Shown here: positions 2,011 to 26,970 of the stretch, one piece after another
Layout of the letters: each line of letters starts with the position of its first letter
Position numbering within the stretch: the first letter of the stretch is position 1
Origin: Escherichia phage ESSI2_ev239
Sequence record: NC_049392.1
DNA: 29,203 nucleotides
Direction: 5' to 3' (one strand)
Translations under genes and position numbers: made by a program
The notes under the pieces: generated by a model
The model's database searches: none
Told to the model about the DNA's origin: nothing
What the model saw: only the letters and a program-made list of their open reading frames with translations

Positions 2011-2555
2011 TAACCCAAAGCATCATTGACGGGCTTCAGCACTTTGCGTTCAAACCACGTCAGTTTTTCTTCATCTTCTCCGGCAGACTGGCCACCGGAC
2101 TGTCCCGCACTACCGGCAGTCTGTTTTTTTGCGGTCGTCTTACCTGTTGCCCTGGCCTCTCGCTTTTCCTGCACGCTGATATGTTCCGCCAGTGTGAATG
2201 TCACCAGCCAGGCCATTTTCCCGTCCTGCTGGGGTGCATCCAGCATTCCGCTGAACGTTGCTTCACGAAAGTTAACAGCACGGGCAACTTCATGCGCCAC
2301 GCGGTACTTCTGACGATTACCACTGGTATCGGTAGCACTGGCCAGCTCAAAAATACGCTTCAGTATTTCAGGCTGTTTAAAAGGTATTTCACCGCTGATC
2401 CGCAGTTCCTTTCCCTTTGCTCCCTGCTCTGATTTTGTTGTGGCACTGGTCTGGCCGGACTGATCTTTATCCTGAAATTGCTGTGAAACAGTCACCCGCA
2501 TGTTTTTCAGCTGGATGGCCTCGCCATTAAGCGCCAGTGTCGGGATCGAAGTCAT
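2010..2555 (-). CDS. Hypothetical phage protein (tail-associated by position)
   Basis: 181-aa ORF translationally coupled to the hub/spike gene; Gly/Ser/Ala-rich C-terminus; no motif I can name. An alternative start at internal Met 19 would be near 2501. Confidence 0.4.
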   Translation of the reverse strand: MTSIPTLALNGEAIQLKNMRVTVSQQFQDKDQSGQTSATTKSEQGAKGKELRISGEIPFKQPEILKRIFELASATDTSGNRQKYRVAHEVARAVNFREATFSGMLDAPQQDGKMAWLVTFTLAEHISVQEKREARATGKTTAKKQTAGSAGQSGGQSAGEDEEKLTWFERKVLKPVNDALG

Positions 2556-3252
2556 GAATCATTCCCTTTATTCCATCAAGATTATCGCCAACCAGCATCA
2601 TGGCTGCGGTGTAAACGGCAGACTGCTGCGGAATGTCCTTCACCAGTTCCAGTAACGTGGTGCCGGTGTCTCCGCTGGCAGTAAAAACCCACGCTCTGGC
2701 ACTCTTCCCCTGTAAATCATTCAGGCCGCTGGCCACATCACTGATAAGCTGGTCACGCAGCTGCGTGAACTCGCCCAGCTGTTTTTTCAGCCCTTCGATA
2801 TCAAACCCGGCACCCGCCGCCTTTTGTGCCTGGCTGATTGCCGCAGCAGATAAAGCTGCCCTGCTGGTTGGTACAGACAGCGGAATGGACGCAGGTAACG
2901 CAGCGGCAGTTTTCGCAGGGATCTGCATCTTTTCAATAGCCAGCGCTGCGGCGGATTGCGCCAGCCGTTTGACCTGCGTGAATGCCGGGGCGGGGAAAAT
3001 CCCGACCAGGTTATTCAGGCTGGCCATAAAGTTTTCCTGCGTCTGTCCGGTGACCATCATAATCACCACATCCACATCCCCCCCTGTTCCGGCCAGGCGT
3101 TCAGCAAGATAGCGAACGGCATTAACCGGGCTGAGATATGCCCCGTTCGCTGTCTGCTGTCCCAGCCCATAAATCCACGGATGCGCAGGGACGATCGAAC
3201 AGTTCAGCGCAGCAACAGAATCCGTGAAGGCCAGACGTGCTTCACGCCACAT
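2527..3252 (-). CDS. Hypothetical phage protein (Ala-rich), downstream of tail fibre assembly gene
   Basis: Track ORF 2527-3288; start moved to Met 13 (MWREARLAF) to limit overlap with the upstream gene. No recognisable domain. Confidence 0.4.
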   Translation of the reverse strand: MWREARLAFTDSVAALNCSIVPAHPWIYGLGQQTANGAYLSPVNAVRYLAERLAGTGGDVDVVIMMVTGQTQENFMASLNNLVGIFPAPAFTQVKRLAQSAAALAIEKMQIPAKTAAALPASIPLSVPTSRAALSAAAISQAQKAAGAGFDIEGLKKQLGEFTQLRDQLISDVASGLNDLQGKSARAWVFTASGDTGTTLLELVKDIPQQSAVYTAAMMLVGDNLDGIKGMIHDFDPDTGA

Positions 3253-3829
3253 TTCCAGGCACCTCCGGCCACACAATTTCCGGCGCATCTTCCGGTTGAA
3301 TACGATTCAGTAAAACGCGGTATTTTTTCCATGCGGTAAGCAGCAGTGCTTCTTCTTCGGTTGCCATGTCTAAATCAACGGCATCCTGCAATGTGGCAAT
3401 GGCTTCATTGGCCTGTTTAAGCAGGCTTTTCTTTTCGGCGTCTGCCTCGCTGACCAATGCAATTCGCATGGCCTCCGCATCATCCACCCACGCCTTACCA
3501 TTCCATTTTTGCCAGGCATTAGCCGGGGCTGACGTGGTTGTCCCTTCCGGGTAAGCGCCTGGCTCGGTGATCACCAGTTCATTACCGTTTTCTGTATCAA
3601 ACACCACCTCACCACGATGATCCTCACGGGAAATCCATCTTTGCTTCTCTGAATCAAAAATTGCCACAAACCCCGCTTTGATTACCGGTGGTTTTATTGT
3701 GGTGCAGTTGGCTGGCAGTCCGGTATGCGCAGGAATAAAGGCGTCACCGGAACCAATAAATTCATTCGTATCGGAACGCAGGTTATAAACAGTAACTGTT
3801 TGATCGATTTCACTCATTTTAAAAGTCAT
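3242..3829 (-). CDS. tfa: Tail fibre assembly chaperone (Tfa; P2 gpG / Mu U / lambda Tfa family)
   Basis: 195 aa directly after the tail fibre gene; C-terminal KKYRVLLNRIQPEDAPEIVWPEVP matches the conserved Tfa C-terminal signature. Confidence 0.8.
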   Translation of the reverse strand: MTFKMSEIDQTVTVYNLRSDTNEFIGSGDAFIPAHTGLPANCTTIKPPVIKAGFVAIFDSEKQRWISREDHRGEVVFDTENGNELVITEPGAYPEGTTTSAPANAWQKWNGKAWVDDAEAMRIALVSEADAEKKSLLKQANEAIATLQDAVDLDMATEEEALLLTAWKKYRVLLNRIQPEDAPEIVWPEVPGNVA

Positions 3830-7178: not shown

Positions 7179-7504
7179 AAATCCACCTGATATGAAAGCG
7201 TGCCAAAATCGTATGTGCTCGCGGTCACCCACAGCCGTTTCTGGCTTTCTTCACTGATTTCCACCGTTCCCGGCACAATGCGCTCATCGTTTTCAACCAG
7301 TAATTCCAGTTGTGTAAAAATATCTGCCCTCAGTGTCGGACTGCGTTCCGCAATTAATTGCGTGGCTAATCCGCTCTCAATAATGGCGTGAATAATGTCC
7401 TGCCCGATACTTTTTCGGTTATTGCATAATTCAGGCTCATTACCGGCATTTAATGAAAAGTCACCATTCTCAATAAGCAGGTCAATATAAAGGGCTTCAC
7501 TCAT
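7175..7504 (-). CDS. Putative baseplate wedge protein (gpW/gp25-like)
   Basis: 109 aa; ATG overlaps the tape-measure stop (ATGA) and its stop overlaps the J-like start. Size and position typical of gpW/gp25; sequence similarity is weak by eye. Confidence 0.45.
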   Translation of the reverse strand: MSEALYIDLLIENGDFSLNAGNEPELCNNRKSIGQDIIHAIIESGLATQLIAERSPTLRADIFTQLELLVENDERIVPGTVEISEESQKRLWVTASTYDFGTLSYQVDL

Positions 7505-9468
7505 ACACCCAGCTCCTGATATTCCATTAACTTGCCGGGCGACATCATTTCAGTTGGATAAATATTCACCGTATCAATTCTGCGGCTGTTATCCGTTACT
7601 GATTTAGAATTACTGCTAATTGTTTTACTGATACCGCCTTTATCAACGCCTTTTAATTCACCGCCAGTAGAAAGGGTATTCGTTGTCAGTGCTGGTTGAG
7701 ATTCGTTCGCCAGTGAAATATCGACGCCCGGAATTTTATTGAGTTTTCCGACAATCCAGTTCCACGATTTCAGGAACCCGCCTTTGATGGTCTGCCAGAC
7801 GTTATCAAACAGGGAGACAATCCCGCTGGCCATGCCGCTTAGCGCCTGTGACGGTGAAAAGCCGGTCAGCAGCGCAATAAAGCTGTTCCAGCCGTCCGTG
7901 ATCCATTGCCACGCCGCGGAAAACACGCCGGCAAGCCATTCCACCACACCAGCCACGGCGGTAAACGCTGCCGTATTCATCACCGCCGCTTTCACATCAT
8001 CCCAGTGTTTAATCAGCAGATAACACCCGGCAGCCAGCAGAGCAATCGCCCCGATAACCAGCAGAACCGGCCAGCTCATCAGGTTGATGCCAATACCGGC
8101 CATAATCGCCGCCATACGCACGGCCAGCAGCGTACCCCGCAGGAATTTCAGCGTCAGGTTCCACGCCACAACAGCCTTTGAGGCAATCCAGACAGTGGCC
8201 GCGTAAATCTTCGTGACCAGCGTCAGGGCGCTCCAGAGTCCCTTCAGTCCCACCAGGATAAATTTTGAGACGCCCATGACAATATTTGTCACCGCGCCCG
8301 CTGCCGCCACGCCAAACAGCGCAAGTTGCACGTAACCAATCACCCGCGCAATGTTGGGAAACATCTGCATCCAGCGTCCGAACGTCTGCCCCATATCGGC
8401 CAGGCGGTTCAGTACCGGGTACAGAACCGGGATCAACGTCAGTCCGATCACCGTCTGAATGGCTTTAAGGATTTGTACAAAGCGATCCCACGGCTTGACC
8501 AGCTTCCCGGCCATCTCCTGTGTACGCTTCAGCCCGTCAGAGCCGCCCAGTTCGGTGATATTACGCTGCAGTAACGCCACATTGCCGTACAGATGTTTTA
8601 TCACCGCTGAACTGTCACCAAATGCCGCATCCAGCTCCGCCTGGGCTTTCAGGTTCCCTTCCAGGCTTTTGCCGTATTTGCCCTGCAGCTTGATCAGCAT
8701 TTCAGGCATGGACAGCATTTTGCCGGTGGAGTCCGTGAAGGACAGCCCCAGCTTTTTAGCGCCCTCCATCGCGCCGGTCATGAAGCCTTCGTAAGCGCTG
8801 CTGGCTTCTGTTCCCAGCGTACGGTTGAGCTGCCCCAGCACCGCCAGCTGTTCATCCAGCCCGACGCCGTAGTTAGTCCCGACACCTCGCGCCCCTTCCA
8901 TCAGGTCTTTGATGGTACCCATTTCGGTACCGAAGACCTTGCGCATATACACCATTTTTCCCGCCAGTTGCTCGGCGAACTGGACTTTACCCAGCCGCGC
9001 CGCATCGGCGGAAAAGTTACCGTACATCTGCCCCATAAACTCTGCTGTGTCGGCGGATGTGGATTTCAGGGCAAATGCCAGCGTATTAGCGACCTTCGTC
9101 ACTTTCGGCAGCTCGCTGGCGGTAAGGCCGGCAATGGAAGCGTTAATGTTCTCTGTGGATTTGACGAACTCCACTGCGCTGGCACCGTAGGTCATGCTGA
9201 ACCGGAGCGCATCACGCTGTACGGTCTTTAATGCCTGATTATCAATCCCTTTTGCGGCGGCATCATTCAGCGCGTCGTACATTTCGATAGCCGGCGATAA
9301 CGCGCCTTTTATGGCCATCCCCGTACCGGCCAGCCCCAGCACGCCGCCGCCAATCTGCGAAAAGGCCGCTTTTGATTTTTCCGCAAAGCCGGTGACGCTG
9401 CCCTGCGCCTGTTTTAACGGGCGCGTCAGCTTATCAATCAGGCTTAATGTAAAATCTAACTGTTTCAT
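7501..9468 (-). CDS. Tail tape measure protein
   Basis: 655 aa, Ala/Gly-rich helical N-half and hydrophobic C-half (LAVRMAAIMAGIGINLMSWPVLLVIGAIALLAAG); directly downstream of the frameshifted chaperone. Confidence 0.8.
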   Translation of the reverse strand: MKQLDFTLSLIDKLTRPLKQAQGSVTGFAEKSKAAFSQIGGGVLGLAGTGMAIKGALSPAIEMYDALNDAAAKGIDNQALKTVQRDALRFSMTYGASAVEFVKSTENINASIAGLTASELPKVTKVANTLAFALKSTSADTAEFMGQMYGNFSADAARLGKVQFAEQLAGKMVYMRKVFGTEMGTIKDLMEGARGVGTNYGVGLDEQLAVLGQLNRTLGTEASSAYEGFMTGAMEGAKKLGLSFTDSTGKMLSMPEMLIKLQGKYGKSLEGNLKAQAELDAAFGDSSAVIKHLYGNVALLQRNITELGGSDGLKRTQEMAGKLVKPWDRFVQILKAIQTVIGLTLIPVLYPVLNRLADMGQTFGRWMQMFPNIARVIGYVQLALFGVAAAGAVTNIVMGVSKFILVGLKGLWSALTLVTKIYAATVWIASKAVVAWNLTLKFLRGTLLAVRMAAIMAGIGINLMSWPVLLVIGAIALLAAGCYLLIKHWDDVKAAVMNTAAFTAVAGVVEWLAGVFSAAWQWITDGWNSFIALLTGFSPSQALSGMASGIVSLFDNVWQTIKGGFLKSWNWIVGKLNKIPGVDISLANESQPALTTNTLSTGGELKGVDKGGISKTISSNSKSVTDNSRRIDTVNIYPTEMMSPGKLMEYQELGV

Positions 9469-9913
9469 TCCGTGCCTTTAAATGCGGTGCTGATTCCGTT
9501 AGCAACCGCTATTCGCATATTTTCCCAGTGGCGATTATCCAGCCAGATGGCAGCGGAAATATCATCCACGGAATCCTGACCGTGTGGTAAATAATGGCGA
9601 CGCAAAATTAAATACTGTTCGAGTCCGTTCTGTTCAATTGCCCGGACTCGTTTTGTCAGTTTTTTACTTCAATTTCCAGTTCTGGCGCATAAAGCTCATT
9701 CACTTTCCCGGCAAGCTGGAGCGCTGCACCCGGACGTTTCAGAATGTCTTCCAGCGCTTCTTTACTTTCAGCAGACACAATGCGTACAAGATAATTGTGT
9801 GCAGGTGCCACTTTATTATCCATCGCCATTTCGTTGATGAACTTATTATAAGCGGTCTGATTCGGTTCAAAGATAATTTCTTTTTTGCATACAACCAGAT
9901 TAATTTTTTCCAT
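9465..9913 (-). CDS. Tail assembly chaperone, -1 frameshift fusion product (G-T / E-E' type)
   Basis: The -1 frame is open from the slippery heptamer at 9659-9665 to a TGA at 9465-9467 that overlaps the tape-measure ATG. Predicted fusion is about 149 aa (...EIEVKKLTKRVRAIEQNGLEQYLILRRHYLPHGQDSVDDISAAIWLDNRHWENMRIAVANGISTAFKGTE). Confidence 0.5.
9656..9913 (-). CDS. Tail assembly chaperone (zero-frame product)
   Basis: 85-aa ORF immediately upstream of the tape measure gene, ending ...EIEVKN with a TGA stop. Confidence 0.6.
   Translation of the reverse strand: MEKINLVVCKKEIIFEPNQTAYNKFINEMAMDNKVAPAHNYLVRIVSAESKEALEDILKRPGAALQLAGKVNELYAPELEIEVKN
9659..9665 (-). promoter_or_regulatory. Programmed -1 ribosomal frameshift slippery site A_AAA_AAC
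   Basis: Minus-strand AAAAAAC (plus-strand gttttttt) covers the last two sense codons of the chaperone (AAA AAC), two codons before its stop. Confidence 0.5.
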
Positions 9914-17330: not shown

Positions 17331-19133
17331 ATGGCAAGGAAGCCAATGGCAAAATACAGTGAAGAACTAAAAGGAGTGGCAAGGGCGCTATACCTGAAGC
17401 GCTATACACCGCAGGAAATTGCCAGCGAACTTAACTTACCCAACCGGCGAATTGTTTATTACTGGGCGGAGAAATATTGCTGGGCGGAACTGCTCAGTCA
17501 TGAATCCACGGAAGACGCGCTGAATCGCCGCGTGCAGTCGCTGACGCTGCGAGAGGGAAAATCAGAGCTGGAGCTACGCGAGCTGGACAGCCTCGTAGCC
17601 CATCTGGTGAAACTCCGTGCGCAGCATAATAAGCATCAGGAAAAGCTGGCCGAAATTAAACACCGTGGCGGCGAAGATGGAGCTGCACCGCGCCAGTCTG
17701 GTGATGGGGATAAATCGGGTAAACGCGGAAAATACAAAAAGAACGATATCAGCAAACTTACTCAGGAGGATTTTGACGCATTCGCCGCAGAGCATTTCTT
17801 CGGCTATCAAAAACATCTGCGAGCCAATCTTGGCCAGCAGGTCAGAAATATACTCAAAAGCCGCCAGATTGGCGCTACCTGGTATTTTTCGATAGAAGCC
17901 TTTGAAAGTGCGGTTATGACAGGCGATCCGCAAATTTTTCTCTCTGCATCCAAAGCCCAGGCGGAAGTCTTTCGCAGCTACATCGTCAACATCGCAGAGC
18001 AGTATTTTGGCGTGGAACTCACCGGCAACCCCATCCGTCTGTCCAACGGCGCGGAGCTGCGCTTCCTGTCCACCAACAAAAATACCGCACAGTCCTATAA
18101 CGGCCATCTGTACTGTGATGAATATTTCTGGGTTCCGAACTTCGCCAAACTGAATGAAGTGGCCAGCGCAATGGCCACGATTGATAAATGGCGCACCACC
18201 TACTTTTCCACGCCAAGCAGCAAGACCCACCAGGCGTACCCGTTCTGGACAGGCGAGGAATGGAAGCGCGGCGACAAAAAGCGCGCACGAACAGTATTCC
18301 CGACCGATAAAGAGCTGCGCGACGGTGGGCGGCTTTGTCCTGACGGCCAGTGGCGTTACATCATTACGATGGAAGACGCTATCGCCGGTGGCTTTAACCT
18401 GGCCAGCATCGAGAAGCTACGCAACCGCTACAACCGCGACACGTTCAACATGCTCTATATGTGCATATTCGTGGACAGTAAAGACAGCGTATTTTCGTTC
18501 TCCCGCGTCGAAAAATGCTGTGTCGATCCGGATACGTGGGAAGACCATGACGAAGACCTTCCCCGCCCGTTCGGTAACAGAGAGGTATGGGCGGGCTATG
18601 ACCCCGCCCGCAGCGGCGATACGTCCACCTTTGTGATTATCGCGCCGCCGATACTGGCCGTCGAAAAGTTTCGCGTGCTGCGCGTTTTCCACTGGCAGGG
18701 GATGAACTGGAAATGGCAGGCGGCACAGATTAAGAAGCTGTTTGGCCAGTACAACATGACCTACATCGGTATTGATATCACCGGGCTGGGAAGCGGTGTC
18801 TTTGAAGACGTTCAGCACTTTGCCATGCGCCAGGCAGTCGCGATCCGCTACGGCGTCGAGACCAAAAATCGTCTGGTGATGAAGATGATTGACGTAATCG
18901 AAGACGGCCGCGTGGAATGGGATAAGGAGAAGACCGAAATCGCCGCCAGCTTTATGACCATCCGGCGCACGTCCACGGCCAGCGGCAACGCGATGACGTT
19001 CGTCGCCGACCGCACAGCAGAAACAGGCCACGCAGACAGTTTCTGGGCTATCGCCCACGCTATCGACAATGAACCACTCAATTACGGAAACCAGCGTAAA
19101 TCCCGCTGGGGAAACTTAGGGAAAGCAGCATGA
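17331..19133 (+). CDS. P: Terminase large (ATPase) subunit (P2 gpP family)
   Basis: 600 aa, divergent from O across a ~170 bp AT-rich intergenic region, as P and O are arranged in P2; followed by the portal gene with overlapping stop/start. Confidence 0.85.
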   Translation: MARKPMAKYSEELKGVARALYLKRYTPQEIASELNLPNRRIVYYWAEKYCWAELLSHESTEDALNRRVQSLTLREGKSELELRELDSLVAHLVKLRAQHNKHQEKLAEIKHRGGEDGAAPRQSGDGDKSGKRGKYKKNDISKLTQEDFDAFAAEHFFGYQKHLRANLGQQVRNILKSRQIGATWYFSIEAFESAVMTGDPQIFLSASKAQAEVFRSYIVNIAEQYFGVELTGNPIRLSNGAELRFLSTNKNTAQSYNGHLYCDEYFWVPNFAKLNEVASAMATIDKWRTTYFSTPSSKTHQAYPFWTGEEWKRGDKKRARTVFPTDKELRDGGRLCPDGQWRYIITMEDAIAGGFNLASIEKLRNRYNRDTFNMLYMCIFVDSKDSVFSFSRVEKCCVDPDTWEDHDEDLPRPFGNREVWAGYDPARSGDTSTFVIIAPPILAVEKFRVLRVFHWQGMNWKWQAAQIKKLFGQYNMTYIGIDITGLGSGVFEDVQHFAMRQAVAIRYGVETKNRLVMKMIDVIEDGRVEWDKEKTEIAASFMTIRRTSTASGNAMTFVADRTAETGHADSFWAIAHAIDNEPLNYGNQRKSRWGNLGKAA

Positions 19134-20149
19134 AGAAACGCAAATTCCGGGAGCGCCGCAGCGCCCCAAAACCGCGTCATATGAGCCTTATCAGCCTGGG
19201 TAAGCCTGAACCCATTCTGACCACCGGCACAAACTATACCGATGTGTGGTACGACAACGAGGCAGAGCACTGGACGCTGCCGATTGACCGGCTGGCACTG
19301 GCGCAACTGGTGAACCTCAATGCACAGCACGGCGGCGTGCTGTATGCCCGTCGCAATATGGTGTCGGCAAACTATGAAAATGGCGGGCTTACGCATGAAC
19401 AGCTGGGGGCGGCAGTATTCGACTGGCTAACGTTCGGTGATGTGGCCATTCTGAAGGTGCGCAATGGATGGGGGGATGTGGTGGCGCTGTATCCGCTGCC
19501 GGCGCTGTACACCCGGCAGCGCAAAACCGGAGAATTCGTCGTGCTGCAACAGGCTGAACCAATGATTTACCCCCCTGAAGATATCATCTTCCTGAAGCAG
19601 TACGACCCGCAGCAGGCGGTTTATGGCCTCCCGGACTACATCAGCGGCATTCATTCCGCACTGCTGAACGGTGAGGCAACTATCTTCCGCCGCCGTTACT
19701 ACCACAACGGCGCTCACACCGGGGGCATTATCTATTCCAATGACCCGAACATGACCGACGAAGTGGAAGAAGAGATTATCAGCAAGCTGGAACAGTCGAA
19801 GGGGATCGGGAATTTCAGCACCATGTTCGTGAATATTCCCAAAGGCGATCCGGACGGCATCAAATTTATTCCGATTGGCGATATCAGCGCCAAAGATGAG
19901 TTTCAGAACATCAAGAGCATCAGCGCCCAGGACGTTCTGACCGCGCACCGCTTTCCGGCCGGACTGGCGGGGATTATCCCGACGAACGGCGCAGTAATGG
20001 GAGATATTGAGAAAGCGGCTAAAACCTACCGTAAAGCTGAAATTTTACCCGTTCAGCGTATGTTTGCGGCAGCGATTGCTGGCCAGAGCGATATTCCACA
20101 GCATTTGTACCTGAATTTCCTGAAAGACAGCGAGCTGGAAGGTGATTAA
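19130..20149 (+). CDS. Q: Portal protein (P2 gpQ family)
   Basis: 339 aa; overlaps the terminase stop by 4 nt; P-then-Q order as in the P2 PQ operon. Confidence 0.85.
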   Translation: MKKRKFRERRSAPKPRHMSLISLGKPEPILTTGTNYTDVWYDNEAEHWTLPIDRLALAQLVNLNAQHGGVLYARRNMVSANYENGGLTHEQLGAAVFDWLTFGDVAILKVRNGWGDVVALYPLPALYTRQRKTGEFVVLQQAEPMIYPPEDIIFLKQYDPQQAVYGLPDYISGIHSALLNGEATIFRRRYYHNGAHTGGIIYSNDPNMTDEVEEEIISKLEQSKGIGNFSTMFVNIPKGDPDGIKFIPIGDISAKDEFQNIKSISAQDVLTAHRFPAGLAGIIPTNGAVMGDIEKAAKTYRKAEILPVQRMFAAAIAGQSDIPQHLYLNFLKDSELEGD

Positions 20150-21155: not shown

Positions 21156-23882
21156 TTATTTTTCCCTACGGAATATCCAGCAACGGAATGTATCCGGCAT
21201 GCGTTGCATTTCACCTTTGCCACGGTTATGGCGTTCACTCACTGCGCTGCGCGTGGTTTTGGTGTCGATAAAACGGCGCTCGTTGCCGTTTTTAAGCAGC
21301 TTTTTAATCTCGGTTAAAGTAAACGGAATACGCTGCCGGTGGGCGGCGGCGACTTCTTCCAGATGGTTAAAATTGACCGCTATTTCACCTTCATCCGATG
21401 AATGGTTAATACCATGCGGTGCCAGCTCGTCGAGGTAGTCAAACAGCTCCCAAAACTCCTGCACCAGAGGGTGATCCTTTTTAAGCGCCTGACACCGTTC
21501 CACGGCCAGCGCGGTGATGGCCTCGCGGGTCTTCTCAATACGCTCCACCGGCACCGGCACAACCAACGCCAGCGCTTCCAGCAAACCGACCAGTTGCGCA
21601 TGGTTTTTGGCGATACGGATATGGCGGATATTGGTATTAGACTCCAGCTCGCCACGGGCGCGTTCGTAGCCCTGGCCAAACACCTTCATGATTTCTTTTT
21701 CACGCATAGTGGCCAGCAGGGTGAAACCAGATACCTGGCTGACTGGGATCTGCTCAAGGCGTTCAGCGGCATAGCGGGTCTGAATAGACTGGCCACGCTT
21801 GTCGGTATAGATGTGGATGATACGCTCCAGAAACGCCTTACTGCCGTCTGTGTCGGCGTTCTGCGCTATCACTATGCTGCCCCTGAATGGCGGCTCGTAG
21901 GTCTCGTTATTGTTCGATTTGATACCCACAGCGCGGGAGGCGCGACCGTTATACAGTGATTTCAGCTCGTCCCAGTCAAAAGCGCGTTGTTTAGCGTTAT
22001 CGGTAGTACGGTCGCCCTCAATCAGCACAACCGGCAAATTACCGACCTGCGCAAAGTTACGGCCACGCGCTGCGGCTGTCGATTTGGAAGGATCAAACCC
22101 TTCATACTCTTCACGGCCGGCGAGTTTCCACAGAAATTCAATCAGCGTGGATTTACCTGTTCCCGGTTCCCCCACGATTTCAAGAAACGGGAAAGACTTG
22201 TCACGCTCGCGGATTTGCTCAGCAAACAGCGACCCCAGCCAGAACGCCAGAGCCACATACCCTTTTTCACCAAAAGCCGTCCAGATATCGTCTACCCAGC
22301 CCGTAGTAAATTCGTTCAGCTTCGGATTCAGATCCAGCGACGGCGTGAGGCTCAGGCTCTTGACGCTGGCGCTGTTGATTTCGAAATAATCTTCATCGTT
22401 CATTTCGTACAGCCGGCCATCACAAACAGCCACGCGATTAAACAGCCATGCAGCATAATCCTTGTTATAGCCAATGAAATTTTGCGTCTTAACCTCTTTG
22501 ATTTCAGGGAGGCGCATCTGGATGAACTTATCCAGCTGTTTGGTACTGCCGGTGTACACCGCACCTTTGGCGATATGCAGCAGACGTTTTTTAAACTCGG
22601 CGGAACTGGTTAACTGGTTGGCCGTGAAAGTATCTTTCACGGCTGGCCGGTTCGGCATATTGACCTTCACGTAATACCAGGACTCGTCTGTAGGTTCAGA
22701 CCGCTGGAAGTAAAGCGGCGTCAGCCAGCAGTTGGCGATTTCAGTCACGCCACCTGACTCTTTAACCGCCCGTTCTTTGGCCTCCCACTCCATCACCACT
22801 TCAGTACCGGTATTGGTGATGCGCTCATAAGCTCGCATGTACCTGTCCAGATCCAGCTCAAACCAGTACATGCGGGAGTTATGCTCAAAATAGAACGAAT
22901 GCCACTCGTTATGCTGATGCATGAGCAACGCTTTTTCAGTCGGGCTTTTCGCCAGAAGGATATCGCCATAGTAGCGATAATTTTTGATGTCCGATTTGCT
23001 GAACCGCCCACGTAAAAGCAGGTCATTCCAGTCCAGACTGGAGGATGATTTCACCGGCTGCGCCGCGCGAACTTTCCAGCCGGCTTCCTCGCTACGGGCA
23101 GCAAAGGCCAGCGTGTGCTTAGTGCCAGCTCTGTCACCATCAAACGCCCATATCAGGCGTGGGCGGGGTTTCTCGCCCAGCTCTTTAGCCAGGGTATCCA
23201 GCGCCACCAGTGGGTAATTATTGCTGCTCAGTGTGGCCACAGCGGGTAAACCCGCCTGGCACAGGCTCAGCGCGTTGAAGATGCCCTCAGTGATCCAGAT
23301 TTCATTCACTTCCAGCAGGTTCACAGACGGCGGAACCCACCAGTGGCCAACGTAGCTGCCTCTGATGTTCGCTTTCTGCTTACCAAAGCGCTGCGGCTGG
23401 TCAATGATGCGCTCCCATGTCGCACCGCAGGTCAGCTTAAATCTGACGGTTGCCGACCCCATACCATCTTTGGCAAACGCCCCCTGGGTAAAGCAACCTT
23501 TCAGCGGTTCAGTATCCAGCCCTCTCGCCTCGCGCAGATACGCCTCAGCTACCGCATGAGGGTTATCTTCTGTGGCCTGGTACCGTTTTGACCAGTCTTC
23601 AAAAATATCCGGATACAGCTCTTTGACAACGACCTGATGGCCGCAGTTGTTTTCGCGGCCGCACTTCAGGATCCAGGGCTTTTCTATGCTGGTAAATAAT
23701 TCACGTTTGTGGCATTTAGGGCAAACGCCCTGTTGCAGATATTTATCCCGTTCCTTGAATTCAAAATCCTGAACGAGTCGGCACACAACGTCCTGCTGTA
23801 TTGTGGCATTCATAATTAATCCAGATGTAGAAAGGTGTGAAAGGCAAAAACTATATTCGGTATTGTTTGTTATATCGCTCAT
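21156..23882 (-). CDS. Replication primase-helicase (zinc-finger + Toprim primase + P-loop NTPase; P4 alpha-like architecture)
   Basis: 908 aa with CPKCH...CGRENNCGH zinc motif, Toprim-like EGIFNA and AFDGDRAG, and Walker A GEPGTGKS. Start may be the internal MNATIQ (about 23813). Confidence 0.75.
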   Translation of the reverse strand: MSDITNNTEYSFCLSHLSTSGLIMNATIQQDVVCRLVQDFEFKERDKYLQQGVCPKCHKRELFTSIEKPWILKCGRENNCGHQVVVKELYPDIFEDWSKRYQATEDNPHAVAEAYLREARGLDTEPLKGCFTQGAFAKDGMGSATVRFKLTCGATWERIIDQPQRFGKQKANIRGSYVGHWWVPPSVNLLEVNEIWITEGIFNALSLCQAGLPAVATLSSNNYPLVALDTLAKELGEKPRPRLIWAFDGDRAGTKHTLAFAARSEEAGWKVRAAQPVKSSSSLDWNDLLLRGRFSKSDIKNYRYYGDILLAKSPTEKALLMHQHNEWHSFYFEHNSRMYWFELDLDRYMRAYERITNTGTEVVMEWEAKERAVKESGGVTEIANCWLTPLYFQRSEPTDESWYYVKVNMPNRPAVKDTFTANQLTSSAEFKKRLLHIAKGAVYTGSTKQLDKFIQMRLPEIKEVKTQNFIGYNKDYAAWLFNRVAVCDGRLYEMNDEDYFEINSASVKSLSLTPSLDLNPKLNEFTTGWVDDIWTAFGEKGYVALAFWLGSLFAEQIRERDKSFPFLEIVGEPGTGKSTLIEFLWKLAGREEYEGFDPSKSTAAARGRNFAQVGNLPVVLIEGDRTTDNAKQRAFDWDELKSLYNGRASRAVGIKSNNNETYEPPFRGSIVIAQNADTDGSKAFLERIIHIYTDKRGQSIQTRYAAERLEQIPVSQVSGFTLLATMREKEIMKVFGQGYERARGELESNTNIRHIRIAKNHAQLVGLLEALALVVPVPVERIEKTREAITALAVERCQALKKDHPLVQEFWELFDYLDELAPHGINHSSDEGEIAVNFNHLEEVAAAHRQRIPFTLTEIKKLLKNGNERRFIDTKTTRSAVSERHNRGKGEMQRMPDTFRCWIFRREK

Positions 23883-24071: not shown

Positions 24072-24632
24072 TTATTTCACACTGGCTATTTTGACAAGAT
24101 ACATCCAGACATAAGAAACAATCTTTATGTTGTGGATTGCATGGTTATACGCATTGCGAGTGAAAGTATACGGAATAATACTGTCCATATTAAGCCCCAG
24201 CGTCGAGGCAAGTTCAACAATCGTAATAACGGATTGCTCATTACCGTGGGTAAAACACTGCACTGCAAACTTATTCAAAACATGCCGCAACACAGAACTG
24301 TGCAGTGATGGACACCCGTTCCATAACTTCACGCTCGCGGGATCAGCATTTTCATTAACGAATGAGTAGAAATCACAGATAGCCAACTCTATATCTTGAC
24401 AATCGTCATCAAGCAACTGACAACGGACTTCAGAGGGTTGACGTAACCACCACTCTATAGCTTCCGCACTGACTGTACCACCGTTACTCATCGAATCATC
24501 AAGACTGATGCGACGATAAAATGTTTCGCCGATTTCACCGGTTTCAGGATTAAAGAAAATTGCAGCAATAGCCGTAATTGCTGCGGTGGATTTATCATCC
24601 ATTGCTTCAATGTCAATCATTAAATGTTTCAT
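24072..24632 (-). CDS. Putative 3'-5' exonuclease (DEDD / DnaQ-like, Rv2179c-like)
   Basis: 186 aa starting MKHLMIDIEAMD, the D-x-E exo I motif seen in small DEDD exonucleases common in prophage early regions. Confidence 0.55.
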   Translation of the reverse strand: MKHLMIDIEAMDDKSTAAITAIAAIFFNPETGEIGETFYRRISLDDSMSNGGTVSAEAIEWWLRQPSEVRCQLLDDDCQDIELAICDFYSFVNENADPASVKLWNGCPSLHSSVLRHVLNKFAVQCFTHGNEQSVITIVELASTLGLNMDSIIPYTFTRNAYNHAIHNIKIVSYVWMYLVKIASVK

Positions 24633-25345: not shown

Positions 25346-25666
25346 ATGGCACATATGTCAAGTATGGGTGAGAAGTTTCGTTTAATCCGCAAGGCTGAGG
25401 GAATGACCCGCCAAGAGTTTGCTGATGCAGTTGGCTTACCTTATGGAACGCTAACGAACTACGAAACAAAGGGTTTCCAAGTAACAGAAGGCGCTCTTAT
25501 GAAGATAACCAAAAACCCAAGATTCAAAAAATACGCTTACTGGCTTTCAACGGACGAAACCATGCCGGAGGTAGGTCAAATATCCCCGGCTCTCTCTCTT
25601 GATGGGTCAGAGCAACCGGAGGATATTCCGGATTTAACCCCCAAAACAGCAAAATCACACCGTTAA
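25346..25666 (+). CDS. C: Immunity repressor (P2 C-like, helix-turn-helix)
   Basis: Track ORF starts at 25013; preferred start MAHMSSMGEKF follows GGAGG at about 10 nt. HTH segment TRQEFADAVGLPYGTLTNYE; about 106 aa, directly upstream of int. Confidence 0.7.
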   Translation: MAHMSSMGEKFRLIRKAEGMTRQEFADAVGLPYGTLTNYETKGFQVTEGALMKITKNPRFKKYAYWLSTDETMPEVGQISPALSLDGSEQPEDIPDLTPKTAKSHR

Positions 25667-25750
25667 AAGCTGAAAATTGGTTAGACCTGTATTTTGAATT
25701 TGCTGACTGCCTGTGGTCGCAGGCCGGAAGCTACATCGGAGGGCTTCGCT

Positions 25751-26734
25751 ATGGCGATTAAGAAGCTCGATGATGGACGTTATGAACTGGACACAAGAGC
25801 GGGCGGACGCACCAGTAAGCGGATCCGCAAAATATTTAACAGAAGGGCTGATGCTGTTGCGTATGAACGCTACATGCTGGGTAAGTTTCAGCGCAAGGAA
25901 TGGGATCCGGCAGCACAGATTGACAGGCGCACGCTGGACGATATCAGAGAATTGTGGTGGCTCTACCACGGCCAGACGCAGAAGAATGGCGAGATTGAAA
26001 ACAGGCATCTCATCAAAACCATTACCGCGCTGGATAATCCGCAGGTAGGCGAGGTTAACAAACGAATGCTGATAGTCCACCGCAGCCGCAGGCTGGCGCA
26101 GGGAATAAGCGCATCCACGGTCAACCGCGATATTTACCGGCTGTCCGGCATGTTCAGCGCACTGATCAAGCTGGATGAGTTTGAGGGGGAAAACCCGCTG
26201 CGTGGTCTGCCTCCCCTGAAAGAGAAAAATCCCGGCATGACCTTTCTCACAAAACCGGAAATTAGCCGCCTGCTGGACACGCTGACGGGCGATTACCGAC
26301 TGGTTGCCCTGCTGTGCCTCAGCACAGGCGGACGCTGGGGAGAGGTCAGTACGCTGACGGAATCGCAGATTATGCACGGCCGTGTCGTATTCCTGGAAAC
26401 GAAGAACGGCAAAAAGCGCGTGGTTCCCATCTCTTCCGAACTGGAAGACGAAATTATGGCCAACGCCAGCGCGGGGCTGTTCCGGGTGGACTATGAAAAC
26501 TTCTGCCGGAAGCTGCGGAAGGTCAAGCCAGACCTGCCACGCGGTCAGGCCACCCACATTCTGCGACACACGTTCGCCAGCCACTTTATGATGAACGGCG
26601 GGAATATCATTGCGCTTCAGCAGATACTTGGCCATGCCAGCATTCAGCAGACGATGGCGTATGCGCATCTGGCACCGGATTATCTCCAGAACGCTATCGC
26701 ACTGAATCCGCTGAAAGGGGGGCTGGGAGTCTGA
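25751..26734 (+). CDS. int: Tyrosine integrase (P2 Int-like)
   Basis: Start MAIKKLDDGRYE, preceded by GGAGGG, matches the P2 Int N-terminus; catalytic region HILRHTFASHFMMNGGNIIALQQILGH...MAYAHL carries the R-H-R-Y signature. Confidence 0.9.
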   Translation: MAIKKLDDGRYELDTRAGGRTSKRIRKIFNRRADAVAYERYMLGKFQRKEWDPAAQIDRRTLDDIRELWWLYHGQTQKNGEIENRHLIKTITALDNPQVGEVNKRMLIVHRSRRLAQGISASTVNRDIYRLSGMFSALIKLDEFEGENPLRGLPPLKEKNPGMTFLTKPEISRLLDTLTGDYRLVALLCLSTGGRWGEVSTLTESQIMHGRVVFLETKNGKKRVVPISSELEDEIMANASAGLFRVDYENFCRKLRKVKPDLPRGQATHILRHTFASHFMMNGGNIIALQQILGHASIQQTMAYAHLAPDYLQNAIALNPLKGGLGV

Positions 26735-26739
26735 TAATT

Positions 26740-26970
26740 CCGTCCACATGTGGACGCATTTTTCCGTTTCGGGACTGCCTGAAACCGCCTGAAACGGAAG
26801 TGTGGACAGTGTGGACGGTAAAATTGGCCTGAAAAGTTTGTAAGTCGTTGAAAAAAAAGACCCCCACATCATGTGGGGGAAGACAGGGATGGTGTTGTTT
26901 TAAAAAGCATAAATCATTGATATTGTTGTATTTATATTGAAATTTCCGTCCACAAAACGTCCACATCGAC
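26740..26970. other. attP attachment site: Int arm-type repeats flanking a hairpin core
   Basis: Left arm GTCCACATGTGGAC (about 26742-26755) and TGTGGACAGTGTGGACGG (about 26801-26818); core hairpin cccccacat-cat-gtggggg preceded by A8 (about 26851-26879); AT-rich spacer; right arm CCGTCCACAAAACGTCCACA (about 26946-26967) in opposite orientation. Confidence 0.6.

Follow-up and report, generated by a model that had tools for sequence, protein, structure and literature searches.

Organization of the tail chaperone locus

The locus analyzed here belongs to Escherichia phage ESSI2_ev239 (NC_049392.1), whose 29,203-nucleotide (nt) sequence, called the window below, is essentially the whole genome of an ESSI-2-type phage of the Peduoviridae. 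It contains a tail assembly chaperone gene that ends on a slippery heptamer and is followed in the -1 frame by a conserved extension, an arrangement which probably allows a longer form of the chaperone to be made by ribosomal frameshifting. All coordinates of the locus refer to the minus strand. The short chaperone open reading frame (ORF, 9656-9913) starts with the ATG at 9913 and comprises 85 sense codons and a TGA stop. Its 3' end reads GAA ATT GAA GTA AAA AAC TGA, with the stop at 9658-9656. The heptamer A_AAA_AAC occupies positions 9659-9665 in the X_XXY_YYZ register (codons GT-A AAA AAC), and the zero-frame TGA (9656-9658) stands directly 3' of it. The -1 frame extension (9465-9659) consists of 64 sense codons (9659-9468, LTKRVRAIEQ...AFKGTE) and a TGA at 9467-9465; translated from the C at 9659 it reads LTKRVRAIEQNGLEQYLILRRHYLPHGQDSVDDISAAIWLDNRHWENMRIAVANGISTAFKGTE. 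The long product, complement(join(9465..9659,9659..9913)), would measure 149 amino acids (aa). The tape-measure gene follows at 7501-9468 (655 aa; PF10145, TIGR01760, PHROG 28), and its ATG (9468-9466) overlaps the TGA of the extension in an ATGA junction at 9468-9465. A preliminary description of this DNA, made from the sequence alone, had described an 85-aa chaperone ending in AAA AAC TGA, a canonical X_XXY_YYZ site at A AAA AAC, a -1 frame open for about 64 codons and a TGA overlapping the tape-measure ATG; the sequence agrees with each of these statements and all the coordinates were correct.

Both halves of the conceptual fusion belong to known families. Residues 4-85 match PF10963 Phage_TAC_10 (E 3.7e-34, 117.2 bits for a gathering score of 25.7; PHROG 1214), and the model of the chaperone superposes on the HK97 tail assembly chaperone, with the fold of that class of proteins. 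Residues 104-147, in the extension, match PF21830 DUF6890 (E 7.9e-25, 86.8 bits for a gathering score of 23.6; PHROG 7050). The same pair PF10963 + PF21830 was found in the conceptual fusions of HP1, Pseudomonas phi3 and ACA1, and no NCBIfam model matched the fusion.

The region in which a shift can be productive is very short. Upstream of the slip site the -1 frame is open for three codons only, the overlap window being AGTAAAAAACTGA. A TGA at 9671-9669 closes the -1 frame on the 5' side and confines any productive shift to the 10 nt of positions 9659-9668 (AGTAAAAAAC), whose 3' edge is formed by the zero-frame TGA at 9658-9656. At the other end of the extension, the codons of the C-terminal residues AFKG (GCA TTT AAA GGC, 9471-9480) contain an AAGG located 6 nt 5' of the tape-measure ATG. 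This AAGG could double as the Shine-Dalgarno sequence of the tape-measure gene, and conservation of the last residues of the extension may partly reflect this translation-initiation signal.

Conservation of the slippery site

The site was compared in three sets of loci. The close set contains 85 of them: 80 IMG/VR contigs, an E. coli prophage, ESSI2_ev040, vB_YenM_324, Salmonella SI7 and the window. In all 85 the last codons of the chaperone are [GA]TA AAA AAC and its stop is TGA or TAA, while the -1 frame runs through 63-64 codons to its own stop, at the tape-measure ATG or a few bases from it. The distant set extends down to about 35% protein identity and contains twelve phages (HP1, HP2, K139, F108, phiO18P, PV94, SMHB1, yong1, ValB1MD-2, phi3, UFJF_PfPro and ACA1), all of which carry A_AAA_AAN in register. 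A further 182 IMG/VR loci were retrieved with the chaperones of phi3, K139, PV94 and HP1 as seeds, which represent four lineages; 180 could be evaluated and 179 have A_AAA_AAN in register. When all sets are pooled, the motif is present in about 276 of 277 loci.

The sole exception (L209; IMGVR_UViG_2767802213_000001, 849-856) has eight A instead of seven, which joins chaperone and extension in a single zero-frame ORF, ...KLQIKVKKIDALV... (KVKKIDALV). Since a second A-run of this locus (around 499) likewise exceeds its counterpart in sibling contigs by one base, the eighth A is probably a homopolymer sequencing error and not a natural fusion-only variant.

The 179 further loci are distributed by the end of the heptamer as follows: AAG in 78 cases, AAC in 74 and AAA in 27. 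The zero-frame stop comes seven codons later in the 78 AAG loci, and directly after the heptamer in the AAC and AAA loci. One of the 78, L176, was checked manually and carries GTA AAA AAG. Over all relatives, the last base follows the host group: phages of Enterobacteria, Pasteurellaceae, Aeromonas and Vibrio cholerae have C, those of marine Vibrio, Salinivibrio and Pseudoalteromonas have A, and the Pseudomonas phages (L088, L095 and L098-L177) have G. This pattern may reflect the decoding properties of host tRNA-Lys and tRNA-Asn, or a compensation between heptamer strength and stop context. Directly 5' of AAA AAN stands the third base of a codon for Val, Leu or Ile. It is A in every case, a synonymous-site constraint for which protein coding does not account.

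Motif, frame, length (60-64 codons) and end point at the tape-measure start are thus kept in about 277 loci from at least 12 Peduoviridae genera, and viable isolated phages are found among these relatives (HP1, K139, phiO18P, ESSI-2 and vB_YenM_324).

Coding character of the -1 frame

The -1 frame is under purifying, protein-coding selection. Among 59 distinct extension sequences, variable sites fall on the first, second and third codon positions of the -1 frame in the numbers 23, 18 and 57, synonymous codon differences amount to 61% in this frame versus 11% and 7% in the two others, and both other frames contain stops. A tblastn search with the extension detected homology in 71 phage records, starting at extension residue 1, i.e. 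at the slip site; the matches of extension and chaperone abut with an overlap of 1 nt (in HP1 the junction is at 21490). Conceptual fusions from 15 lineages, with 35-55% protein identity among them, align without any gap across the junction. The preliminary description had made its proposal depend on conservation of this segment in related phages; the extension is kept in HP1, HP2, K139, F108, phiO18P, Pseudomonas phi3 and others, so that the proposal is not refuted on this ground.

The position of the first possible start codon varies widely in the same 59 sequences. Depending on the relative, the first ATG, GTG or TTG of the -1 frame is found at codon 3, 19, 31, 38, 48, 52 or 56. The TTG at 9605 (codon 19) is the first candidate start in 8 relatives, and in 35 the first candidate lies at codon 48 or beyond, inside the domain. 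An AlphaFold model of the extension, computed apart from the chaperone half, consists of three helices (predicted local distance difference test 91.2). A fold search of this model against viral predicted structures gave no informative neighbour (best E 0.76).

Candidate stimulatory elements

The preliminary description had advised a search for a stem-loop downstream of the site, and one is present: at 9620-9650, starting 8 nt 3' of the heptamer, an 8-base-pair (bp) stem (CGAGUCCG/CGGACUCG) closes a 15-nt loop. It appears in both the minimum free energy fold and the centroid fold, and for the 60 nt downstream of the heptamer (z = -3.3) none of 200 shuffled sequences folds as well. In 34 distinct enterobacterial sequences, 98.5% of the cells of the hairpin alignment are paired. 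Compensatory changes affect 3 of the 8 pairs; the closing pair, for instance, is G-C in 24 sequences, A-U in 7 and G-U in 2. None of 500 shuffles matches the pairing or the covariation score of the hairpin, and slid controls are at most 39% paired. On a larger scale, the 60 nt downstream fold with significant stability in 9 of the 15 deep lineages (z of -2.3 or lower), and SMHB1 and yong1 have a stem at the same position with an entirely different sequence. The hairpin probably acts as a frameshift stimulator, as far as folding and covariation can indicate it.

Other elements were sought around the site. For a pseudoknot with the hairpin loop, inspection by eye gave a weak 4-bp possibility only. 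The Rfam scan of the window returned no family at the gathering score, hence no match to a curated frameshift element, and the tRNA scan was likewise empty. In every AAC and AAA lineage the zero-frame stop (TGA, TAA or TAG) comes immediately after the heptamer, unlike in the AAG lineages of Pseudomonas phages, a pattern that is phylogenetically confounded; the adjacent stop possibly adds a pause for the weaker heptamers.

Comparison with known frameshift systems

Nearly all long-tailed phages have two tail assembly chaperones made via a -1 frameshift, and the P2 family is the textbook case. The locus had been compared in the preliminary description with the chaperone pairs G/GT of lambda and E/E' of P2, and everything expected of such a pair at the sequence level was found: gene position, conserved domains, slip site and a -1 frame devoid of a conserved start. 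Conservation among P2-related phages was reportedly noted by Christie et al. in 2002 and Xu et al. in 2004.

P2 (NC_001895) belongs to the same family, Peduoviridae. Its gpE/gpE+E' pair is likewise encoded directly 5' of the tape measure, with a short product of about 90 aa and a long product of about 142-149 aa that share their N-terminus; the heptamer of the -1 shift is homopolymeric and close to where the short ORF ends, and the extension ends at, or overlaps, the tape-measure start (PMC3091744). The differences concern the details. The P2 heptamer is T_TTT_TTG and lies 6 codons before the E stop, whereas A_AAA_AAC is directly at the stop here; the P2 domains are PF10109 Phage_TAC_7 and PF06528 Phage_P2_GpE instead of PF10963 and PF21830; the tube and chaperone genes of the window have a lysis cassette between them; and P2 and its Burkholderia relatives are reported to be without a downstream hairpin (PMC3091744), while the enterobacterial clade studied here has one. 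Membership of the gpE family itself was considered and rejected: the Pfam scan found neither PF10109 nor PF06528, BLASTP gave nothing significant, and hhalign returned a probability of 0.3%. By analogy, the pair would work like P2 E/E+E' even though it is not a member of that sequence family.

The lambda gpG/gpGT pair also comprises two chaperones with one start and a low-level -1 shift, encoded between the major tail (tube) and tape-measure genes (Levin 1993; Xu, Hendrix and Duda 2004, 2013 and 2014, summarised in PMC5009743). Its functional model, in which the shared domain binds the tape measure, the extension binds the tube protein and neither form is in the virion (PMC5009743), is the template adopted here. 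Lambda differs in being a siphovirus, in its heptamer G_GGA_AAG, in its larger T domain and in the absence of sequence similarity; moreover, efficiency and function were measured for lambda, whereas the present pair is known from sequence.

The closest annotated parallel is gp36/gp36a of Pseudoalteromonas phage ACA1 (OR438928). This pair has the same domains (PF10963, E 5e-18; PF21830, E 4e-9) and the site A_AAA_AAA, and the record contains a joined coding sequence (CDS) noted as a 'projected programmed frameshift analogous to that in phage P2', a projection made by the annotators. The ACA1 product is about 35% identical to that of the window, its zero-frame ORF runs 8 codons beyond the heptamer, and no significant structure follows the site (z +0.37). 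The paper accompanying ACA1 does not discuss the chaperone frameshift. Finally, insA/insAB' of IS1 uses the identical heptamer: A_AAA_AAC is a proven -1 site of low efficiency in E. coli, yet shift-prone, with more than 0.1% frameshifting without stimulators (PMC4066793). The IS1 transposase system is unrelated and has no established stimulator (PMC4066793), in contrast to the conserved hairpin that follows the site in the phage.

Proposed mechanism and alternative explanations

On the basis of the comparative data we propose that a low-level -1 ribosomal frameshift yields a short and a long chaperone from one gene, a reading to which we give a probability of about 0.88. For most ribosomes, translation would stop at the TGA after the 85 codons, and the product would be the short chaperone. 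A small minority would move back by one base on GU-A AAA AAC, where the tRNA-Lys of the P site and the tRNA-Asn of the A site would re-pair to AAA AAA; the pause would probably come from the 8-bp hairpin 8 nt downstream and possibly also from the adjacent stop codon. The shifted ribosomes would read 64 more codons and end at the ATGA, producing a 149-aa protein composed of the chaperone domain and the three-helix DUF6890 domain. If the pair behaves like gpG/gpGT of lambda and gpE/gpE+E' of P2, the shared N-terminal domain would let both forms coat the tape-measure protein, the rarer extension would recruit tube (hence sheath) subunits onto the baseplate-tape-measure complex, and neither form would be found in the virion. 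We infer that the fusion is made, at a low level; the assembly roles of the chaperone and of DUF6890 are deduced from the better known systems.

The sequence of the junction would depend on the mode of slippage. A classical simultaneous slip of both tRNAs keeps the Asn and predicts ...EIEVKN-LTKRVR... (VKNLTKRVRAIE), and a slip in the P site only, or a transcript with one additional A, predicts ...EIEVKK-LTKRVR... (VKKLTKRVRAIE). The preliminary description had given the latter peptide, which is possible under these two conditions and differs from the product of the classical slip.

Several observations weigh against the proposed frameshift. The hairpin stem encodes a conserved R-V-R...N-G-L, so its conservation is partly a protein constraint, and downstream folding is unremarkable in 6 of the 15 lineages (YenM324, SI7, phiO18P, HP1, PfPro and ACA1). 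No conserved Shine-Dalgarno-like element was seen by eye in the 12 nt 5' of the heptamer across the 15 lineages. The accessible literature contains no experimental evidence of the fusion protein, for this phage or for the family. A ribosomal slip and a transcript with one additional A give nearly the same product, and sequence alone does not separate them. In E. coli, A_AAA_AAC shifts only weakly (PMC4066793, PMC5009743), and A_AAA_AAG is much shiftier (PMC5009743). Such a weak site fits the proposal because a chaperone system of this kind needs little of the long form: the G:GT ratio of lambda is about 30:1, frameshifting in P2 being 2-3 times more efficient (PMC5009743). A last reservation concerns the layout itself. 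A scan of all ORFs of at least 60 aa in the window found 85 in-frame X_XXY_YYZ heptamers, 3 of which are located at other overlapping gene junctions, near a stop and with a -1 frame entering the next gene.

These three junctions, together with the chance frequency of bare AAAAAAC in the window (8 copies versus 7.1 expected), could suggest that the chaperone site is a mere by-product of compact overlapping genes, or the remnant of a broken gene in a defective prophage. At the first junction, G_GGA_AAC (19109-19115, plus strand) lies 5 codons 5' of the stop of the large terminase (17331-19133), and its -1 frame is the portal gene (19130-20149, with an ATGA overlap); because the portal owns an ATG, this heptamer is probably a coincidence of overlapping genes. 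At the second, A_AAA_AAT (9903-9909, minus strand) stands directly 5' of the TAA of an Rz1/LysC-like ORF (10199-9900), and its -1 frame is the chaperone ORF itself (ATG GAA AAA ATT). As ESSI2_ev040 is without this motif (MEQI...), it is a by-product of the chaperone N-terminal codons, and it serves as a negative control for the conserved site 240 nt downstream. The third, T_TTG_GGT at 2013-2019, is near the stop at an overlapping gene junction. Given the chance-level copy number and these similar layouts, the heptamer alone proves little; the case is carried by the comparative evidence, which is strong. The chaperone site is far above chance because it is kept in every lineage examined and because a -1 frame without a start behaves as coding. 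Conservation of the arrangement in some 277 loci from at least 12 genera, viable isolated phages included, and purifying selection on the -1 frame speak against both coincidence and decay, and the 35-55% protein identity among lineages excludes a very recent common ancestry. Coincidence or decay is effectively refuted by these comparisons.

Two other explanations accept the extension as coding. The first places the shift in the transcript: RNA polymerase would add one A on the A6/A7 run, giving a chaperone-DUF6890 fusion (...VKK-LTK...). The shift site is a homopolymeric A run in all lineages, L209, with one A more, reaches an equivalent outcome because its predicted fusion is a single ORF, and both bacteria and insertion sequence (IS) elements are known to obtain frameshifted products by transcriptional slippage (PMC5009743). 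We nevertheless regard it as improbable. In about 277 loci the run counts only six A, or seven in the AAA lineages, and shows no tendency to lengthen. Bacterial RNA polymerase slips efficiently on longer runs, of at least about 8-9. The hairpin 8 nt downstream, with its compensatory changes, resembles a ribosomal stimulator and has no obvious role for the polymerase, and the same heptamer works ribosomally in IS1 (PMC4066793). The second explanation dispenses with recoding altogether and makes DUF6890 an independent small gene of 46 aa starting from the TTG at 9605. RefSeq/PGAP (the Prokaryotic Genome Annotation Pipeline) and several phage records do call a separate small CDS, and Pfam and NCBI treat DUF6890 as a stand-alone family. 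This is very hard to reconcile with the absence of a conserved start: the TTG comes first in a small minority of the relatives and most have their first candidate inside the domain. The 18 residues before the TTG are conserved as protein and homology reaches the slip site in all lineages; annotated N-termini are ragged and include CTG "starts" that are the first -1 codon; no Shine-Dalgarno sequence was recognized by eye 5' of the TTG; and the invariant heptamer, including its synonymous third-position A, is left unexplained.

A more elaborate version of ribosomal frameshifting was also considered. DUF6890 would replace the E' domain of P2 and the T domain of lambda without being homologous to them, as an independent means of recruiting an HP1-type tube protein; in a distinct stimulatory design, the weak heptamer would rely on the adjacent stop and the hairpin, the strong A_AAA_AAG of Pseudomonas phages doing without an adjacent stop; and the shifted ribosomes would re-initiate at the ATGA. 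Taken as a whole this scheme is doubtful. If re-initiation does take place, tape-measure synthesis would be tied stoichiometrically to the long chaperone.

Annotation of the DUF6890 family

The extension is annotated in different ways from one record to another. In the 98% identical E. coli prophage (RefSeq), PGAP reports a 'DUF6890 family protein' at the equivalent of 9465-9605 (minus strand, 46 codons, TTG start), an ORF that is best read as an annotation artefact of an unrecognised frameshift. A gap of about 190 nt is left empty in the records of ESSI2_ev040, vB_YenM_324, HP1, HP2, K139, PV94, SMHB1, PfPro and ValB1MD-2. A separate small ORF with an arbitrary TTG, GTG or CTG start is called in E. 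coli RefSeq, SI7, phi3, F108, phiO18P and yong1. Two chaperone CDSs at the site are present only in the GenBank records of ACA1, ACA2 and proACA1-A, which belong to the same protein family and of which ACA1 was the one inspected. ACA1 is the only precedent we found for a frameshift annotation in the PF10963 + PF21830 family, and the accessible literature makes no link between frameshifting and DUF6890, PF21830, PF10963 or HP1 orf26.

Protein databases reflect the same situation. The 149-aa fusion product was not found in those searched. A DUF6890 search of 5.8 billion sequences retrieved 42 proteins of 45-71 aa, none with PF10963, and the chaperone homologues among the matches listed (n=120) all measure 85-99 aa. 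A scan of 1.84 billion representative proteins with the DUF6890 hidden Markov model gave 69 hits, never as the in-frame C-terminus of a larger protein; all but one are 26-81 aa long, and their N-termini are aligned from profile position 1 to 34. The remaining hit, of 1,582 aa, matches the profile in 14 short repeated stretches and was discarded as it looks spurious. The longest NCBI entries of the family start with MTKRVR..., that is, with the CTG of the first -1 codon called as a start. Such ragged N-termini look like the result of gene callers guessing starts inside a frameshift extension.

The mechanism proposed for this locus is well known and biologically ordinary, and its value is mainly for annotation. 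The site was previously unannotated in this phage, and DUF6890 (PF21830, PHROG 7050) would receive a function as the frameshift extension of Phage_TAC_10 chaperones in the HP1/K139/ESSI-2/phiO18P/phi3 branch of the Peduoviridae, correcting a systematic mis-annotation across this HP1-type branch. The site would also provide a clean natural test case, combining A_AAA_AAC, stop and hairpin in Enterobacteria, with C, A or G as last base of the heptamer according to host group.

Tail module and other genes of the window

The chaperone gene belongs to a contractile-tail module, where it sits between the tube and tape-measure genes, directly 5' of the latter. On the minus strand the order is sheath (12618-11491), tube (11494-11039), holin, endolysin, Rz/Rz1, chaperone (9913-9656), extension and tape measure (9468-7501); the lysis cassette (holin, endolysin, Rz/Rz1) is thus inserted between the tube and chaperone genes, as in HP1. 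The tail genes of HP1 type comprise the sheath (DUF2586), the tube (Phage_HP1_Orf24), the HP1_ORF34 baseplate protein and DUF2590. Head and completion genes are of P2 type: capsid (PF05125), GPO scaffold, both terminase subunits, portal, gpL, gpR and gpS. The statement of the preliminary description that the tail proteins are not P2-like is valid in a narrow sense: the head and tail-completion genes are of P2 type, and the chaperone pair has no detectable sequence similarity to P2 E/E+E'. The closest relative of the window is Escherichia phage ESSI2_ev129 (about 89% identity over half the query), and 13 complete E. coli genomes hold prophages that are 98% identical over the chaperone region queried.

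Some observations concern genes outside the chaperone locus. Two ORFs of the minus strand have no Pfam match at E of 0.001 or lower, one of 405 aa at 25655-26872 and one of 253 aa at 2527-3288; the latter is located between a tail-fibre assembly gene and the HP1_ORF34 baseplate gene. At the phage edge, 27190-28293 (plus strand, opposite to its neighbours) encodes a 367-aa acyltransferase (Acyl_transf_3, PF01757, E 4e-29) that looks like lysogenic-conversion cargo, e.g. an O-antigen acetylase. A protein with an Rv2179c-like 3'-5' exoribonuclease domain (PF16473, E 9e-52) is encoded at 24072-24632 (minus strand), and the adjoining gene at 21156-23882 (minus strand) specifies a 908-aa replication protein of the Toprim/DUF5906 primase-helicase-like type. 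The exonuclease is an unusual accessory gene for a replication module of the P2 family.

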